From the NCBI RefSeq assembly GCF_000027125.1, contig NC_017626.1: 64,000 bases of DNA. The stretch is one strand, 5' to 3'. Positions 1 through 54,001 of this stretch are shown piece by piece. A program made the translations under genes and the position numbers. Origin of the DNA: Escherichia coli 042. GTDB lineage: Bacteria; Pseudomonadota; Gammaproteobacteria; Enterobacterales; Enterobacteriaceae. Within the stretch, counting starts at the first letter, position 1; every line of letters begins with the position of its first letter. Below the pieces are notes generated by a model. It was not told where the DNA came from. It did no database searches and worked only from the letters and a program-made list of their open reading frames with translations.

Positions 1-463
1 CAAGAATATCCATAACACCTTTCCGATCTATTCCGGCATCTCTAAATGGTAAACTAATAGTTAAATTTGCATTTTTCGAACTATATCCTTCACGGTAATC
101 TTCGTCTGCTCTTATTGCTACATAGCTTGTAACTTTATCACCAGCATTAAGCATCGGACGAACCCACTGTTCGAAGGGCGCGAGTTTTAACTGACGAGTA
201 CACCAACGAGTCTGCGGCGAGGGTAGAAAATGATTATATTCACGTAACCAGAAATCAAAACCACGTCTAGGGTTTAGTCTGGCAATTGGTTTGCCTAAAA
301 ATCCTTCTAATCGCCCCAAAAACTCATAGACTTCAGGTAATTCTTTACCTGTATCAGTAAAGAAATAGTCGATATCTAACTCGGGGCGTGTCTGGCGCAT
401 GAAAACAGCAAGTGCAGCACTGTCTTTACCCCCAGAAATACCAAGTACATGCTTTTCAGTCAT
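1..463 (-). CDS. PAPS-reductase-family PP-loop protein, N-terminal ~154 codons (gene continues past window start)
   Basis: Minus-strand translation from ATG at 461-463: MTEKHVLGISGGKDSAALAVF...FFTDTGKELPEVYEFL...RWCTRQLK. SGGxDS PP-loop motif and PAPS-reductase-like TDTG region. 2-bp gap after stop of upstream ATPase gene. Confidence 0.7.
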   Translation of the reverse strand, partial: MTEKHVLGISGGKDSAALAVFMRQTRPELDIDYFFTDTGKELPEVYEFLGRLEGFLGKPIARLNPRRGFDFWLREYNHFLPSPQTRWCTRQLKLAPFEQWVRPMLNAGDKVTSYVAIRADEDYREGYSSKNANLTISLPFRDAGIDRKGVMDIL

Positions 464-3400
464 TCTTAACCTCAACATCATGCTGAGCGATTTTAATACA
501 AGCTTTACCTAATGCAGCCATTATAATATCTGGGTTTAATCCTTTTCCAGATAATGTTCTAATTAACTCACCGGCGAGGTTGTCAATCTGATGGTTGAAT
601 TGCTCAGGTATACTGAATTCGTGTTTGAATGTTTTCATTTCTGAACCAGCTCCAATAACCACTGCAAATGCCTCGCTTGATGGTTTTCGTCCTTGGATCG
701 ATACTAATGCTTCGGATTGGCGAAACCGCAGTGCAAAATTGGCTATTTCCATAAGTGCTAAATCAATATCTCGATCATTCCAGTCTCTTGGAGGCTTGTT
801 TGCAGCTAGGCTGAGTATACCTTCTATAGAATAATGACTACCATCGTACGTAGCTAAACGTGTTGAAAAGGCATCTTGCCGAAGTTCGCCAGTGATACCG
901 GATAACGTTTCAGCACGTTTTCGTAGTGTAGATAAGTCATCTTTATTAGCATTCAGAGCTTTTAGCATTCTTGATGCAAATTGGTCTAAGAGTTTGTCAT
1001 AGGCACTCCAAAGTTCTTTTACTGGAGCCTGTAATGCATCAACATAATTTTTCCCACTTTCTACATTTAGAGCCGCGGCTAAATCAATAAATAAAACTTT
1101 ATGAGGATCGCTAGCTTTTAATAGTGTATCTCGTACCTTCTTCGCATTAGATGAAAGTCTCGCCGTCCTTTGTGTCCAATTTGGGAGTCCAACAATCATG
1201 GCAACTAGACTTCTGGCAGCTTCTAACGGTTCAGCTGAATTAGACATGAGACCAATAGAATCAAGAAGTTTACCAATTCCTACTAGAATCTTTTGTTTTT
1301 CATCATCAATTACAATCCACCGCAAGGAAAAACGTTTTTCATCCTGCAAGTATTCATCAATATCTGCATCAGTAAAAGTAGGAATAAATAATCCATCTTT
1401 ATAAATAGCAATATTACTTTTAGATGCCAGAAGGAAGGCCATAAATATTATCGGTATAACACCTTTTTTTAAACCAAATGGAGGTTTAGCCCAAAGGGTA
1501 TGAATATCAGATACTGATATCATTTGATTTTTATTTTTAATGAAATCATGCGTTTTCTTCCAAAGACCATAAAACGACGAATGCTTGTCGCTGACCGCAG
1601 GAAGAAAATGATAATACCCATCATGATGCTTCGCATACAAGCCGGTACGATGGAGAATCGTTTCATATAGGCCGCGTGAGGCAGGATATCCCTCAATTCC
1701 AAGATGGAGTTCACCCTCATTTTCTAGCATTCGATATAACAATTCTTTCCTGGCTTTTACGCTATTGCTGGATAAATTATCACGATTAACTAATTCACTC
1801 CATAACCTTGGAGCTTTGTAGTAAATATTATCTGCAAGAGAGGATGCAATTGATGATAAAGTACCTTTAGGTTCCGCCTGAGCAGAATCTATACACCATT
1901 CCGCAGTCGCTAATGCCTCTGCTAACTGTTCTTCTAATGTTGATTGCGTTGCACTTATCCTTGCTTGGACTTCTCTTCGTGCAACAGCATCACCTTGTAA
2001 TTCATGTCCACGTTTAGTTTGGACTATTTGAAGTGCTAGGAGTTCGGCACCTAAATCTTCTATGCGCAGGTAGTTATGTGGAATCCCGGCAACAATGGGC
2101 CATGGCTTTGAACGAGAAGCATCAGCACAAATTATTTTAGCTTGTTCTTCATTTACATTTCTTTCAGGAAGTGCCAGAAGAAATAATCCAAACTCTCCGT
2201 TACGTGGCTGGAACTCTTCTGAATATTTTTTTACCTCGTTAAGGTGACAAAGTGCAATATTCATCCAGCGAAAAGTACCAGTTTGATGGTAATGCCTTTT
2301 TGCAATTACAGGATAAAGATTAGCAATTTTATTCAGTTGACTAAAATCTGTTCCAAGCATGGTTGCACGTGATTGTGCAACGGCTTGGTCAATATTAAAA
2401 TCACTTCCTTCAAAAACAGACCATGCCCCGGTATGTTTTTTGAATATGATAACACGCCATTTAGAAAGATCTTCGAGTGCGGATCTAATATTTTCAATAG
2501 AAGTATTCAAGAATAATGATTCTAGTATGCTTGTTTCAGCGGTCAATCCTGAACCATCTTTGAAAAGGTCAAGTATTGCAATACATTTAATTAAATCAAT
2601 ATGCAATATATTATCAGATTTTGCCTCCGCACGTTCTACAGCGTCTACCGCTTGTGCCCAACGATGTCCATCATTAGAGGCCAAAATTAATTGTTCAAGA
2701 TTTGCTCTTAAGTAATCGAAATAGTTTGAGGGAAGATACCAAGTAGCCTCTTCAAATGTGGTTAGATTGAGATAGTTTTGAAACCCGAAAGGTTCAGAGG
2801 ACGAGAGAAAACCAAAAGTTGAACGCTCGTTCTGTCCAAACTGACGTTTTGATATAGGTCCTAATAAAGCAGCCATTACCGGGTGTAAAGGCCAACACTT
2901 GGATAATGCATAATCATATTGCTTTCCAACCATTGGGCGTCGATCATAAATAGCATCCGCGACTACTTGCGCTACTTTTTGAGTGTATTTGGGTCTTTTT
3001 TTAACATCTAACGCTTTACCTATAAGTTCAACAACTTCATCACTCCCTGCAACTAAGGGAATATCAGCATAACGGCCTTGGATTTTAGTCCACTCTTCAC
3101 GAGTTTCAAGTCCAAGTCGAACAGCATATTGTCCAAAAGATTGATGTAATATACCTAAGATAATGACTTTACCATTTGTACGTGCTGCAGATTCAGCAAG
3201 CTCTTGGTAAAAATAAATATCATCGCCATTTCCTAAAGCTGATGCTTCAAGGAACTTACCTAGCTCGTCAATGATAAGCAAGGTACCATCTAACTTCGCT
3301 TCATCTGCAGCACTGCATATGTGTTTAATAAGTAATGATGCTGATTTTTTATAATCTTTATCACTACCACAAACATTATTCAGAGTTTGCGAAATTTGTT

Positions 3401-3800
3401 GGATTATGCTACCTCTGCGGCCAATAACTGGAAGTATTAACCATCCTTTTTTAACTTGGAATGCTTTATCAAAATCACTTTGTGAATCGACATTTAACAA
3501 TGACCTTGCTTTTTCACGTAGAGCTTTGTTAGGTGATAATGAACTTGCAAGAACTAACGCTAATGATGATTTCCCACTTCCATACGGACCAGTCCATGTG
3601 AAAGCTCGCTGTTGGCTATTCAGAACCTGCTTGGACATGTTTTCAAGAACGCTTTGTGCCGTGCCATTGCATACATATCCATCAAGCGCATCTTCGCGGC
3701 CAAGATCAGCATCAATACGGATGGAACGTTGGTATTGTCTCGCAATGCGAACCTGTTCTGAAAGAAGGTTTTTATTATGTTTAGTCATAAGCCTTTCCAA
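456..3800 (-). CDS. Large P-loop NTPase (1114 aa), uncharacterised
   Basis: Supplied ORF; Walker A GPYGSGKSS near residue 70 and Walker B-like LLIIDELGKF near residue 175; long C-terminal extension. Overlaps upstream gene by 20 bp. AT-rich codon usage. Confidence 0.6.
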   Translation of the reverse strand: MERLMTKHNKNLLSEQVRIARQYQRSIRIDADLGREDALDGYVCNGTAQSVLENMSKQVLNSQQRAFTWTGPYGSGKSSLALVLASSLSPNKALREKARSLLNVDSQSDFDKAFQVKKGWLILPVIGRRGSIIQQISQTLNNVCGSDKDYKKSASLLIKHICSAADEAKLDGTLLIIDELGKFLEASALGNGDDIYFYQELAESAARTNGKVIILGILHQSFGQYAVRLGLETREEWTKIQGRYADIPLVAGSDEVVELIGKALDVKKRPKYTQKVAQVVADAIYDRRPMVGKQYDYALSKCWPLHPVMAALLGPISKRQFGQNERSTFGFLSSSEPFGFQNYLNLTTFEEATWYLPSNYFDYLRANLEQLILASNDGHRWAQAVDAVERAEAKSDNILHIDLIKCIAILDLFKDGSGLTAETSILESLFLNTSIENIRSALEDLSKWRVIIFKKHTGAWSVFEGSDFNIDQAVAQSRATMLGTDFSQLNKIANLYPVIAKRHYHQTGTFRWMNIALCHLNEVKKYSEEFQPRNGEFGLFLLALPERNVNEEQAKIICADASRSKPWPIVAGIPHNYLRIEDLGAELLALQIVQTKRGHELQGDAVARREVQARISATQSTLEEQLAEALATAEWCIDSAQAEPKGTLSSIASSLADNIYYKAPRLWSELVNRDNLSSNSVKARKELLYRMLENEGELHLGIEGYPASRGLYETILHRTGLYAKHHDGYYHFLPAVSDKHSSFYGLWKKTHDFIKNKNQMISVSDIHTLWAKPPFGLKKGVIPIIFMAFLLASKSNIAIYKDGLFIPTFTDADIDEYLQDEKRFSLRWIVIDDEKQKILVGIGKLLDSIGLMSNSAEPLEAARSLVAMIVGLPNWTQRTARLSSNAKKVRDTLLKASDPHKVLFIDLAAALNVESGKNYVDALQAPVKELWSAYDKLLDQFASRMLKALNANKDDLSTLRKRAETLSGITGELRQDAFSTRLATYDGSHYSIEGILSLAANKPPRDWNDRDIDLALMEIANFALRFRQSEALVSIQGRKPSSEAFAVVIGAGSEMKTFKHEFSIPEQFNHQIDNLAGELIRTLSGKGLNPDIIMAALGKACIKIAQHDVEVKND

Positions 3801-4671
3801 GCATGTTCAATTTAATTACTTCTGTTTCTGATGTTTTACGATGAACCTGGCGTAAACCAGCTGTATCAGTCCATATAAATGAACCTTCAGTTAACTCTTC
3901 TAATGCGAATAATCGTTCTGCAATAGAGTCTTCATCGAGCTTAAATACTCTACCCGGAGAACCGTCCCCATATGCAATTGTTTCGAAGGATAATGAGCTG
4001 AGATTTAGGGCCTTACGCTCCCAATAATCGATCAGAGCATAAGCAAATACACCATCAGACAAAGTAATCTTTGGACCTCGACGAAATGAAAAGTGTCCTT
4101 TTTTTTCTTCAGCTAGTAAACCTAATTCACCAAGCATAGGTTCGGCAAAGTCTTCAGGAGTGGTTCCACTCGACCGCGGTGCATAACTACGCAAACATGT
4201 CTCAATATCTCGAGAAAGTGTCATTGGTGATAGTTTTCTCCCAGGACAACATTGCGTAGCATAGTCAGCTAAAAGAGCCCGGAGGTCTTCTTGTGTAAAA
4301 GATGAAGAAACAACATGGTTAAATAACCAGTACCAAGTTGTCGAGCGTTCTCCTTTTCCTGAAAGCTTCCAATGGCTAAGCCATGCTGTCGAGGGATGCT
4401 CTGAATAAGGATCAAGCCCATGTTCGCTAAATATTTTAATAGCAAATTCTGTAAGTTTGAATTTACCATCCTCTTCTCGCATTACTTCACAGGCGAGTGC
4501 CCAATGCTTGATTGATGCGACCATGTTTTTGCCTACACCAAATTTGGCAATGGCCTCATCATTCGAAAAAACCGATTTGTCAATAGAACCATCCGGCGCT
4601 GCATAACTGCAGGTTTTTTTTAACCACATTTGTCTTAGTGGGAAGGTCTCGTGACCTGAAAAGTGAGCCAT
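3781..4671 (-). CDS. Hypothetical protein (296 aa), first gene of three-gene module; possibly a DUF4007-type protein (from memory, unverified)
   Basis: Supplied ORF MAHFSGHETFPLRQMWLKK...; ATG at 4669-4671; 20-bp overlap with ATPase start suggests translational coupling. Confidence 0.5.
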   Translation of the reverse strand: MAHFSGHETFPLRQMWLKKTCSYAAPDGSIDKSVFSNDEAIAKFGVGKNMVASIKHWALACEVMREEDGKFKLTEFAIKIFSEHGLDPYSEHPSTAWLSHWKLSGKGERSTTWYWLFNHVVSSSFTQEDLRALLADYATQCCPGRKLSPMTLSRDIETCLRSYAPRSSGTTPEDFAEPMLGELGLLAEEKKGHFSFRRGPKITLSDGVFAYALIDYWERKALNLSSLSFETIAYGDGSPGRVFKLDEDSIAERLFALEELTEGSFIWTDTAGLRQVHRKTSETEVIKLNMLGKAYD

Positions 4672-5502
4672 GACTTATCCTAATGCGATAACAACTTTGT
4701 ATAAGCTGATTGTACAGGAACTGGAGAGTTTCACCAGTGGCGGCTTTTGGACATCATTGGGGTGGCGTAGCGGTTTTTTTTTTATTTTTTTCGTTAAAAT
4801 ACATATTGTTAATTGTTTTTTATTGCGGAGGGGAACTGTCTATATCTTCTCATGCATCGGGATTTTTAACAGGCCTGAGCTGGCATGTTCTACCGTTTCA
4901 CACAGAAAGGAACAGTTAGTTTCAAACGGATACTTATCAATCAGTGGTGTGAGAAATGCTAAGAGTGGGAAACGCACTTAATTTTATGATTTCTTAGTGA
5001 CCAGTTTTTAACCATGAGCTAATCTTAAAATCTGATTTTTATCAATGAGTTAATGTTGATGTACTATGCGGCAATGAATGAAGTGTATTGCCATTCCGAA
5101 TTTTTGCTCATTTTTTAGCCATTTCCATACTTTTTTGCGTGAATATTTTATGAACAATGTTCCTTTCATAACTTATCTGTCTCAAATGATACGTTTGGAG
5201 TTTACAATTACTAAATATTTAATGTAAGTGGGAACAGCTATTTTTTGTTCATATTAGCTCCCAGCAGCAAAAGATGATGTAATTCATCCGGTGCAGAGAT
5301 AATATAGGAATGGATAATCTGGAGAGCGACTCTGCAGGCTGATATTGCGGTTTTGCGGCAAGTTTTTGGCATCCGCTTCTACGCCAAATACCTGAAGTAG
5401 GAATGGATGCGTTAGCAGCATACATCCGGATCTGCGCGGGGAATAGCCGGAAACGGCTATCCCTACCACAATAGCTAACTTTGTAATAGTGCCCTTTTAG
5501 GC

Positions 5503-6534
5503 TCATGTACTCTGACGTAATTCTATCTGGTAGTTGAATTGCACGATACGCGACTCTTCTGATTCATCATGATTATTATTCAATAGCCCAATCAGTAACT
5601 TACCCGTCTCTATCCCCATTTTTTTGTAGTCAATACGGATGGATGTCAAGGTTGGGTGTGTTTGATCGCAATTGTCTGAACCATCAAGACAAGCTACAGC
5701 GATATTTTCAGGAATTTTTAACAAACGCCGCTGGCACTCAAACATGATACCCAGCGCAATCTCTTCGTGGCTGCAAATCACAGCATCCAGCTCTGGTTGT
5801 CGCAGTAATATCTCGTTTAATGCGTAACGCCCCAATTGCAGACTTGCGGCATCCGGCATGGTGATAACAAGATCAGAGTTCTGGTAATGGCTCAACATTG
5901 CTTTATGCCAGCCGTTCAGTTGCTGACGTTGCAGGCGGTTGTCCATATGCGCACCGATAAATCCGATATTCTTATAACCCTGTTCCAGCAGATGTTCGGT
6001 CAGTTTATGTGATGCTTCAAAAAATGCTGTTTCGATGGTAATTTGAGCCGGACTGAAAGGGGAACCGACAACGTTAATGGTAGGTATATTTGTTTTCTCG
6101 AGTATCTGGTGAGTTTTATCAGCCAACTGAGAACCAAAAATAACTAACGCCGCCGGGTTGCCTTGAAGAAGCGTCATCAGAATTTCAGCTTCTTTGAGCT
6201 GATTATACTCATGACACCCAAGCAGTAGCTGGAATTCATTTTTATTAAGCACCTGCTGCAACGACTGCATAAAGCGGGAGCTGGCTTTATCTGTCAGGGA
6301 AGGAACCAGTACGGCGACTGTATCACTGTGACCAGATGCAAGGGCGCCAGCAGTTCTGTTGGGAATATAACCCAACTCTTCTACGGCCTGTTCTATCTTT
6401 TCCCTCAGCTTGTCAGATACCTGTTCCGGTGTTCTCAGCGCACGGGAAACGGTCATGGTTCCGACACCTGCAAAGTTAGCGACCTCCTGCAGCGTCACCC
6501 GTCCGGTACCACGGCGCTTACGTGTTTTTTCCAT
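5503..6534 (-). CDS. LacI/GalR-family transcriptional regulator
   Basis: N-terminal HTH VTLQEVANFAGVGTMTVSRAL followed by a periplasmic-binding-protein-like sugar-binding domain; 343 aa; divergent from the PTS genes. Confidence 0.85.
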   Translation of the reverse strand: MEKTRKRRGTGRVTLQEVANFAGVGTMTVSRALRTPEQVSDKLREKIEQAVEELGYIPNRTAGALASGHSDTVAVLVPSLTDKASSRFMQSLQQVLNKNEFQLLLGCHEYNQLKEAEILMTLLQGNPAALVIFGSQLADKTHQILEKTNIPTINVVGSPFSPAQITIETAFFEASHKLTEHLLEQGYKNIGFIGAHMDNRLQRQQLNGWHKAMLSHYQNSDLVITMPDAASLQLGRYALNEILLRQPELDAVICSHEEIALGIMFECQRRLLKIPENIAVACLDGSDNCDQTHPTLTSIRIDYKKMGIETGKLLIGLLNNNHDESEESRIVQFNYQIELRQST

Positions 6535-6804
6535 TTCGACTCCATGGATAATTACAACCAGCTGTTTTCATTACTTTTATTTCACCATTACTCTTTCCAG
6601 TTTTTGCCCACGGTAGCAAATATCCTGTTGCATTGTATATGCAGGAACCGAATATAGCCAAAGCATGGCGGCAGAGAAATGATAGCGCTATCACAAAGAT
6701 TGGTAGCGTTATCAGATAGCGCTATCAAATGCGACAATCATCACATTAATTAATGCGTAAAATATCTACTCTCCTGTTAATTATCATCGGGAGTTATCAG
6801 TAGC

Positions 6805-7248
6805 ATGTTAAAAAATCTATTAAATACAGAGGTCGTTCAGGTCGTGGAACAGGCCAAAGACTGGCGGGAAGCCGTGGCGATTTCATGCCGGCCGTTGATT
6901 GAAAACGGTTCTATCGAACCGCGTTATGTTGATGCGATCTATCGCTCGCACGACACTATCGGTCCGTACTATGTGGTTGGCCCTGGTATTGCGATGCCTC
7001 ATGCGCGCCCGGAAGAGGGAGCTAACAAGCTGTCATTAGCACTGACCCTGATCCCTTCAGGTGTGAATTTTGATGCCGATGAAAACGATCCAGTGAAATT
7101 ACTGATTGTGCTGGCTGCAACCGACAGTACCAGCCACATTGAAGCGATTTCTCAACTCGCCAAGTTATTCGATAACGAAAAAGACATACAGGCCATTTTG
7201 ATGGCCAAAACGACGCAGGACATTTTGTCTGTTATTGCGCGCTATTAA
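6805..7248 (+). CDS. PTS EIIA component, ascorbate (L-Asc) family
   Basis: 147 aa; GIAMPHAR phosphorylation-site-like motif; first gene of EIIA-EIIB-EIIC cluster. Confidence 0.75.
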   Translation: MLKNLLNTEVVQVVEQAKDWREAVAISCRPLIENGSIEPRYVDAIYRSHDTIGPYYVVGPGIAMPHARPEEGANKLSLALTLIPSGVNFDADENDPVKLLIVLAATDSTSHIEAISQLAKLFDNEKDIQAILMAKTTQDILSVIARY

Positions 7249-53122: not shown

Positions 53123-54001
53123 ATGGTTCAGAAAATTTTGTCGGATAAGGTTATGAATGAAAGAACAAATGCGTATTACTCTTATTATCTTGGAGGGCGT
53201 AATATCTCCGTACTGCCCCTTAATGTTTATGATCCCCCGGAACGTTTTATCGCTTACATAAAAAAAAACAGAGAAAATCTGAACATCACACTTTCAGATT
53301 TTGAACTTGAACAAATAATTTCTGGTATGCGTCTGAAGGCCCTGGCCTTCCTGGTCCCCCTGGAAAAAATATCCTGGATCGCGGGCAGTGAACGCGCATG
53401 CTTATTTTCCTGGTATCTGTTGATGCAGTTTATCCAGAATAACAGGGCAAAAATAAGCGCAGACTTGCTTCAAAAGAATAAACTGTATCTTAAAGAAGAG
53501 TATCTGGAAGGGAATGCCTTCCCGTCGGACTCATCGACACAGTTCAGACAAATACTCAGAGTTCTCGATATTCTTTCTGATAAGAATTTGCGGGATGAGT
53601 GGATAATCCAGACCAAAGACAGATGGATGCGGGCATTTAAATCAAAGAGTCCTTTCAGTTACCTCCTCCCGGAGAACGAACATGAATGCATATGGACATG
53701 GAATTATTTGAAGGGAAAAAATATTGCACTGGAAAAACTGGCCAGTTTTCCTGGTTCTGCTGATATTTACCACGCAATTCACCTTTCATTTGACATATGG
53801 GTTACCTGTCCACTCACCTCACCTGACGATATAAAAAATTTCAGAAACAGTTTCAATAAGGCCAAGGCGCAGCGCAAGTACAAAAAATGCAGGAAGATAA
53901 AGTCAATGTACAGTTTTTTCTTGACGCAGAAACCAGGGCGCAGCTCAAAGAATTATCGAGGGTCAGAAGACTCAGTACCGGCGAAATGCTGCATGACCTG
54001 A
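53123..54001 (+). CDS. Hypothetical protein (292 aa), AT-rich island cargo
   Basis: Supplied ORF; contains A9 homopolymer at ~53255-53263; an alternative frame over the last ~150 bp encodes MQEDKVNVQFFLDAETRAQLKELSRVRRLSTGEMLHDLIVEEYKRYRHSR*. Confidence 0.4.
   Translation: MVQKILSDKVMNERTNAYYSYYLGGRNISVLPLNVYDPPERFIAYIKKNRENLNITLSDFELEQIISGMRLKALAFLVPLEKISWIAGSERACLFSWYLLMQFIQNNRAKISADLLQKNKLYLKEEYLEGNAFPSDSSTQFRQILRVLDILSDKNLRDEWIIQTKDRWMRAFKSKSPFSYLLPENEHECIWTWNYLKGKNIALEKLASFPGSADIYHAIHLSFDIWVTCPLTSPDDIKNFRNSFNKAKAQRKYKKCRKIKSMYSFFLTQKPGRSSKNYRGSEDSVPAKCCMT

Follow-up and report, generated by a model that had tools for sequence, protein, structure and literature searches.

A candidate operator upstream of sspBCD in a mosaic intergenic interval of Escherichia coli 042

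What lies in the long gap upstream of sspB in Escherichia coli 042, and does any of it control that gene? The window, that is the whole 64,000-nucleotide stretch of contig NC_017626.1 that was analyzed, is intergenic at positions 4672-5500, with sspB on the minus strand on one side (3781-4671, an open reading frame (ORF) of 296 amino acids) and a LacI-family gene, also on the minus strand, on the other (5503-6534, 343 amino acids). An initial annotation of this DNA had described the interval as one AT-rich leader of ~800 bp in front of a three-gene module, possibly holding a small regulatory element. The module is the SspBCD DNA-phosphorothioation operon. PADLOC recognizes SspB (E 7e-115), SspC (E 0, gene 456-3800) and SspD (E 1e-140, gene running off the left end of the window), and SspB has relatives in the PDB (IDs 6JUF and 6LB9). 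In the identical DNA of E. coli CV839-06, RefSeq names a DUF4007 family protein, a LacI-family regulator and, between them, a 108-bp “IS110 family transposase” pseudogene. The sspBCD module is a three-gene operon that uses IscS where sspA is absent (PMC8092258).

The stretch 4672-5502 is a mosaic of three unrelated pieces rather than a single 800-bp leader: a genomic island spacer (4672-5274), an insertion sequence (IS) remnant (5279-5375) and the 3' flank of the LacI-family gene (5376-5502). Its functional content sits mainly in the 70 bp adjoining sspB, which hold a Shine-Dalgarno sequence, a TACAAT hexamer and a palindrome. As a whole, this edge of a truncated defence island is an ordinary mosaic with one conserved cis-element. 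Taken together, the mosaic interval, a proximal promoter (P2) and a palindromic operator for autorepression form a model that is considered likely, and the following sections give the evidence on both sides of it.

The sspB box and the proximal promoter

The features at the start of the operon are the following:
3781-4671, minus strand: sspB (DUF4007), first gene of the sspB-sspC-sspD operon, identified by PADLOC and RefSeq
4678-4681, minus strand: Shine-Dalgarno AGGA, 6 nt before the ATG at 4671, read from the sequence
4709-4714, minus strand: -10-like hexamer TACAAT of the proximal promoter P2, invariant in six enteric lineages
4720-4738, no strand assigned: the “sspB box”, a 19-bp palindrome, ACTGGTGAAACTCTCCAGT on the minus strand, consensus ACTGG-N9-CCAGT, a putative operator recognized by comparative conservation

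The comparison covered sspB loci from 30 species, four further enteric lineages and plasmids, and a box was accepted with at most one mismatch in the 10 specified bases, within 200 nt upstream of sspB. Under this definition the box precedes sspB in 40 of 44 related alpha-, beta- and gammaproteobacterial loci (36 of 40 with duplicate pairs counted once). Two of the four exceptions harbor symmetric variants, CCTGG..CCAGG and a spacing of 10, and the other two are distant homologues, of 31-33% identity. Matches are 131-fold denser upstream of sspB (43 in 8.8 kb) than elsewhere in the loci (12 in 324 kb), the chance expectation being 3e-5 per position. The core of 4+4 bp (CTGG, CCAG) is invariant in 37 sequences, and the DNA flanking the box is unalignable among related loci. 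The E. coli box is the sole copy within its island, and three lineages (Acinetobacter, L022 and L032) possess two boxes 32-33 bp apart. The small regulatory element that the initial annotation had thought possible is thus present, as a conserved palindrome beside a conserved -10.

The box is absent upstream of DUF4007 genes at 30-35% identity, namely those of Vibrio scophthalmi, a gammaproteobacterial metagenome-assembled genome (L047), Thermomicrobium, cyanobacteria and Streptomyces. In the Vibrio scophthalmi plasmid pVS127 (L063 1357-1381; SspB 33% identical), another palindrome with 9-bp arms, AGACGCTGT-N7-ACAGCGTCT, is found between the divergent sspA and sspB genes. The window contains one more exact ACTGG-N9-CCAGT match, at 53728-53746, which is located inside a 292-amino-acid plus-strand ORF (53123-54001) devoid of any Pfam match and is probably due to chance. 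A LexA box was rejected by inspection, since the core CTG and CAG are separated by 11 nt instead of 10 and have other bases around them.

The sspBCD promoter is almost certainly located in the proximal part of the interval. Six enteric lineages, whose SspB proteins are 74-100% identical, have wholly different upstream neighbors; upstream of sspB they can be aligned only over CTACTGGAGAAACTCTCCAGTTCnTGTACAATC and, in five of them, over the ribosome-binding region. The segment TTAGGATA is kept in the five closest enteric lineages, and locus L055 keeps AGGA alone. Assuming the usual 7-nt distance from the -10, transcription would start near 4702 and produce a leader of ~31 nt. The box, located where a -35 element would be expected, ends 5 nt upstream of TACAAT (4714-4709) and spans ~-36 to -18 relative to this predicted start.

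Most beta- and gammaproteobacterial loci exhibit a TAGAAT/TAAAAT/TATGAT-type (TAnAAT-like) hexamer 2-9 nt after the box, with the sspB ATG 5-7 nt after the hexamer; across loci the gap between box and hexamer is 2-20 nt. An ATG at that distance has the geometry of a leaderless mRNA, which supports the -10 call independently of its consensus score. Enteric sspB genes have 37 nt between the -10 and the ATG, including the AGGA Shine-Dalgarno, and gene callers give SspB 296 amino acids in enterics versus 305-310 in the non-enteric loci. A leaderless sspB mRNA appears likely in beta- and many gammaproteobacteria (L019-L046), enteric sspB being 10 codons shorter with an acquired leader. The alphaproteobacterial sspABCD operons (plasmid loci L058, L060, L061 and L062, ~1420-1460) harbor the box inside the very end of the sspA coding sequence, and 11-24 nt separate it from the ATG of sspB. 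In Sinorhizobium, the sspA stop codon overlaps the 3' end of the box.

Autorepression and the alternative of a hairpin

As an operator, the palindrome would be bound by a protein of the system itself, which would thus repress the operon that encodes it. A protein sitting on a box that covers the -35 position and the spacer would exclude RNA polymerase, and such repression would keep the DNA-modifying machinery at a steady level. The genes located upstream of sspB vary by locus (AlpA, a reverse transcriptase, a GerE-type regulator, a deoxyribosyltransferase-like pair, SspA, or a small DNA-binding protein in Acinetobacter), and therefore the proteins common to all box loci are SspB, SspC and SspD only. 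An activator dependent on a fixed helical phase is disfavored by the variable gap between box and -10. A dimeric, triple winged-helix SspB would be the most likely repressor. SspB has been crystallized as a dimer and displays nickase activity (PMC9240713), and it contains a triple winged-helix DNA-recognition module related to those of FokI, BpuJI and BrxA (PMC10853773, PMC12839542). By analogy with DndB at the dnd promoter, SspB may be the binder of the box, which is given about an even chance.

Ssp systems phosphorothioate the C-ps-CA motif (PMC9646914), and each half-site of the box contains 5'-CCA-3'. The box could then be imagined as a modification-sensing switch, in which the affinity of an SspB dimer would be set by sulfur at the two CCA sites and would feed back on expression; this is a long shot.

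A palindrome may also act as a nucleic-acid hairpin instead of a duplex binding site, either as an RNA stem-loop that would affect sspB translation or stability on read-through transcripts, or as a DNA hairpin or cruciform for loading of, or nicking by, the SspB nickase. Counting of the symmetric positions in the 37 sequences revealed that inner as well as outer arm positions vary on both sides with complementarity retained: the outer flank pair 7/29 is CG in 10 sequences and GC in 9, the pair 8/28 is AU in 12 and UA in 5, and the inner pair 14/22 is UA in 14 and AU in 7. Overall, 69.8% of the cells pair, as compared to 24-43% when the partner is slid. The position of the alphaproteobacterial box, transcribed within sspA and ending shortly before the sspB ATG, is also favorable to this idea, as is the nickase activity of SspB. 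Conversely, in most beta- and gammaproteobacterial loci the box is upstream of a -10 that itself lies 5-7 nt from the ATG, and hence outside the sspB mRNA. The inner pair 14/22 is non-complementary in 15 of the 37 sequences, the E. coli copy among them, and such mismatching next to the core is more in keeping with a degenerate half-site (ACTGGWG) than with a stem that must form. Folding of the predicted E. coli leader gives no more structure than that of shuffled sequences (z = -0.7). On balance, the hairpin is judged unlikely. The box is not a terminator, because no U tract follows it, and a terminator scan of the interval gave no site above shuffled sequences.

Several points weigh against autorepression through the box. 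The arm covariation, which fits a dimer co-evolving with two half-sites, fits a stem equally well. The known roles of SspB are those of a nickase and target-recognition subunit, and regulation is not among them. The -35 of P2 is poor (CTGGTG/TGGTGA), and sigma-70 scans of the interval yielded nothing above shuffled sequence, with 2 sites versus 3.9 expected in a consensus scan and a best position-weight-matrix score of 10.0 against a shuffle median of 10.4; the promoter was therefore placed by conservation instead. The E. coli box has one asymmetric position (ACTGGTGA versus TCTCCAGT), and the related loci compared are not phylogenetically independent samples. Finally, two of the four alphaproteobacterial operons have the box only 11 nt away from the ATG and show no recognizable -10 downstream of it, so that a simple scheme of an operator over the -35 cannot hold everywhere.

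The conserved sspB box is undescribed in the literature searched. Full-text literature searches and a 2025 review (PMC12707154), the primary SspABCD-SspE paper being outside that scope, yielded neither an sspB operator nor any account of how Ssp is regulated; the same review lists dndB as the sole gene with a regulatory role in phosphorothioate (PT) systems. Nothing has been published on the regulation of Ssp modules, to judge by the searchable literature. Such regulation matters since an under-modified host lies open to its own PT-sensing nuclease partner, while over-modification is costly. The box provides a concrete and cheap hypothesis, SspB as an autorepressor that is possibly modification-sensitive, and it can be used as a search pattern for annotating sspBCD promoters.

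The mosaic interval and its AT-rich spacer

The remainder of the interval is made of a spacer, a junction and two pieces foreign to the island:
4831-5274, no strand assigned: lineage-specific AT-rich spacer, no function detected (no Pfam match, no gene call, no plasmid or phage match)
5275-5278, no strand assigned: 4-nt filler TGAT at the deletion junction
5279-5375, minus strand: internal remnant (~residues 133-164) of an ISEc21-like transposase of the IS110 family (blastx 80.6% identity, E 1e-13; blastn 94.4% over 5279-5367)
5376-5502, minus strand: 3' flank of the LacI-family gene with a 10-bp G+C-rich hairpin, common to ~1300 E. coli genomes whatever lies to its left

The query 4600-5560 was compared by megablast with 5426 complete E. 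coli genomes. The full stretch is present in only nine of them, and ~1300 more match just from ~5279 rightwards. The left 603 bp (4672-5274) are carried by nine genomes, in the same configuration in all, and no further match was found in E. coli, plasmids or phages, blastn sensitivity included. The origin of these 603 bp was revealed by a second, untruncated island context, found through the exact SspB protein in public assemblies (loci L009, L013, L014 and L016). The full-length island encompasses, in order, an integrase, a 794-amino-acid ATPase/kinase, a 614-amino-acid protein, sspD-C-B, a gap of 1149 bp, alpA, a Rep-like gene and a CP4-type set ending with CbeA/CbtA; the tyrosine integrase adjoins tRNA-Leu (leuX). 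The initial annotation was right that the module is horizontally acquired, as attested by this integrase-bearing island at tRNA-Leu and by its presence in nine of the 5426 genomes.

From sspB to 5274 the window is 99.8% identical to the full-length island of locus L009, and no identity is found beyond. Segment 4672-5274 is the proximal 603 bp of the 1.15-kb alpA-sspB spacer (99.8% identical to L009 9399-10000), which in the full-length island runs 546 bp further to alpA past the break of the window. Positions 5249-5274 (minus strand) correspond to the last 8 codons and the stop of an unsupported 83-amino-acid ORF of that island. Island homology stops at 5274, and IS-remnant homology begins at 5279. 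This alignment identifies the boundary 5274-5279 as a deletion junction: a deletion in this lineage removed the remaining island and fused the spacer, via the four filler bases, to the transposase remnant. No tRNA-Leu 3' repeat (attR) marking the island end was found within the window with up to 3 mismatches allowed.

The presence of a transposase remnant at 5279-5375 means that the interval is not one leader. The AT-rich part extends over ~600 bp of the supposed ~800, the DNA from 5279 onward being IS remnant and 3' flank of the neighbor. The initial annotation had reckoned that homology to a degraded coding remnant would speak against its leader, and such homology, to an ISEc21-like transposase, is what 5279-5375 exhibits. 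RefSeq labels the remnant a pseudogene, “IS110 family transposase, missing N- and C-terminus”. Most E. coli possess at this place a longer contiguous remnant (residues 133-240), which is therefore the ancestral state. The practical gain for the window is a corrected annotation, in which the “leader” becomes a truncated island spacer, an IS remnant and the 3' flank of a neighboring gene.

Two rare left flanks join the remnant at the same nucleotide (5274-5279; L003 ~6001, L002 ~6001, L064 3001): the Ssp spacer in nine genomes and a P4-like satellite with a truncated primase in three. The remnant continues leftwards in most genomes and begins 22 bp further in in B2 strains, and the shared junction displays no attachment-site repeat. 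The hairpin of the LacI-gene flank (5440-5463, GGGAATAGCCG GAAA CGGCTATCCC) is located ~40 nt downstream of the LacI-family stop and is devoid of a U tract; the fold of this flank is not significant against shuffled sequences (z = -1.6). Comparison of the window with CV839-06 (NZ_CP025753.1) shows that the two are not collinear to 53.7 kb: a coordinate extrapolated there falls where the window segment is missing, the divergence being further right, beyond ~50 kb.

The island encodes neither SspE nor a DndB-like protein according to PADLOC and Pfam. The partner genes of sspBCD, located left of the window (L004 6053-10284 in E. coli CV839-06, L009 15197-19428), form a convergent pair that is neither SspE nor SspFGH. 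The 794-amino-acid partner possesses a MutL/BbrUII-like GHKL ATPase at its N terminus and a histidine-kinase module (weak HEF_HK match) at its C terminus; the 614-amino-acid partner exhibits a weak Response_reg_2 match only and belongs to no PADLOC or NCBIfam family. This pair may be an uncharacterized PT-dependent effector.

Could the AT-rich stretch itself be a decayed gene, a lost sspA or another island gene, bearing no regulatory meaning? The eight codons of the 83-amino-acid island ORF at one end, the real coding remnant at 5279-5375 and the fact that sspA is directly upstream of sspB in many Ssp systems would agree with this. Yet no ORF in any frame has a Pfam match, nothing outside the island resembles the stretch at the DNA level, none of the assemblies has a gene call in it, and the 83-amino-acid ORF is itself without family support. 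Enteric relatives, too, have long non-coding gaps of unrelated sequence (247-1149 bp) upstream of sspB. A decayed gene is therefore held to be highly improbable. The small ORFs on both strands (103, 85, 69, 49, 45, 44 and 39 amino acids) have no Pfam match and no gene call in nine assemblies, and were rejected as genes for these reasons. An Rfam scan of 3500-7000 gave no family at gathering score; the sole match, a Moco motif at 5369-5478 (20.5 bits versus a threshold of 36, E 0.15), overlaps the hairpin of the LacI-gene flank and, being below threshold, was rejected as noise.

The low G+C content noticed by the initial annotation holds for the island spacer. Segment 4672-5274 has 35.0% GC as compared to 49.5% for the whole window, which places it in the lowest 0.8% of 603-nt windows; the ssp genes have 39.5%, the host ~50%, and the DNA from 5279 onward 46-49%, the segment 5279-5502 averaging 48%. 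A/T tracts of at least 4 nt are in excess (16 versus 9.8 +/- 2.7 in shuffles, P ~0.02), 13 of them being plus-strand T tracts. H-NS coats AT-rich foreign DNA by preference in E. coli and Salmonella, and the tract could be curved, H-NS-bound DNA that silences the acquired operon, which would be compatible with an operator at P2. The composition of the spacer and of the ssp genes, the A/T-tract excess and the clearly horizontal origin of the DNA agree with such silencing. Nevertheless, the high-affinity motif of H-NS, TCGATAAATT, shows no enrichment (1 match versus 1.4 in shuffles), the AT-rich part, with the exception of one block at 4786-4825, lacks conservation even among enteric relatives, the conserved elements are sequence-specific and not merely compositional, and the AT-richness covers only 600 of the 830 bp. 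Silencing by H-NS is thus a possible reading, given somewhat less than an even chance.

That block and the runs beside it form a distal group of features:
4774-4791, no strand assigned: plus-strand T10-A-T7, read as A7-T-A10 on the sspB sense strand, of variable length in the strain alignment
4784-4812, minus strand: candidate distal promoter P1, TTAACA (4812-4807), 17 bp, AAAAAT (4789-4784), best sigma-70 match in the interval and no better than shuffles
4786-4825, minus strand: block 2, AT-rich and semi-conserved in Enterobacterales only (alignments of five enteric lineages; blastn 82.5% over 40 nt to Enterobacter sp. Ag1)

The initial annotation had reported T9 and T7 runs near 4775-4800. 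The T7 is found at 4785-4791, whereas the long run is a T10 (4774-4783) in this strain and a T9 in others. The T10 is the longest homopolymer of the 64 kb (P ~0.014 in segment shuffles). With 103-120 nt between them and the ATG, the upstream runs are not part of the widely conserved core promoter. A transcript from P1 would start inside the A10 run. A P1-like arrangement (TTAAC hexamer, 16-17 bp, (A/T)AAAAT) is recognizable in three of the five enteric lineages (E. coli, Enterobacter and Pectobacterium) and weak in Serratia, and P1 is proposed as a distal promoter with low confidence. The tracts and the block, 100-155 nt upstream, probably act as an accessory element, in the form of either bent DNA or a second, weak promoter.

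Homopolymer length would drift by slippage, and the tract might be a phase-variable contingency element, in which slippage would alter the spacing between block 2 or P1 and the core, or the initial P1 transcript, and so switch the SspBCD level. In four strains aligned over 1.2 kb the run lengths are the sole differences, and in 15 near-identical copies the long run has 8, 9, 10 or 11 residues and the short one 6 or 7. A short-read-style assembly gives 8 (L016); a metagenome scan for tract variants found a single contig, with A10 (L048); and Enterobacter sp. Ag1 has an A6/A9 pair at the matching place. Against this, several variant copies come from assemblies rich in frameshifted genes (L012, L013, L017, L015 and L007), and part of the length variation is therefore probably homopolymer sequencing error. 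The tract is moreover outside the core promoter, is absent in Serratia, Pectobacterium and more distant relatives, and adjoins a P1 no better than chance. Phase variation is accordingly regarded as improbable.

Comparison with known regulatory systems

H-NS-silenced islands share with this locus AT-rich, A-tract-rich DNA upstream of a horizontally acquired E. coli operon. They differ in that the conserved elements here are defined by sequence and the high-affinity motif is unenriched, H-NS occupancy being a candidate reading at this locus. Homopolymer contingency promoters are exemplified by Neisseria porA/opc and Bordetella fim. As in these, a homopolymer of 8-11 nt is found near a promoter and varies in length among close relatives; unlike in these, the tract is upstream of the conserved core and not between -35 and -10, sequencing error is a live explanation, and within-strain switching is only a candidate.

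The IS remnant is 94% DNA-identical to the ISEc21 transposase gene over 5279-5367 (codons ~133-164). It is nevertheless a ~97-bp internal fragment, corresponding to ~residues 133-164 of 358, and no complete IS110 element was met. Having no ends and no catalytic domains, and also lacking the non-coding end region, it is therefore inert.

The closest parallels concern autoregulation of modification genes. Among restriction-modification systems, C-protein/C-box systems regulate themselves, and M.SsoII or M.EcoRII bind a palindrome in their own promoter. No dedicated C gene is present here, the modification is backbone phosphorothioation and not base methylation, and the operator is deduced from conservation. 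What is shared is a palindrome over the core promoter of modification genes, co-evolving and travelling with the system between hosts.

Within PT systems, the dnd promoter of Salmonella enterica Cerro 87 contains two TACG-N10-CGTA palindromes to which DndB binds, regulating both dndCDE and its own gene (PMC4507180). The motif differs from that of the sspB box, and DndB is a DGQHR/ParB-like protein, unlike the triple winged-helix nickase SspB; binding and regulation have been demonstrated for DndB, and are proposed by inference for the sspB box. The architecture is common to both: a PT-operon promoter with short-arm palindromes whose spacer is about one helical turn (TACG-N10-CGTA as compared to ACTGG-N9-CCAGT), sometimes in two copies, a regulator encoded by the system itself (putatively so for the sspB box), and a presumed limit on the level of the modification enzymes.

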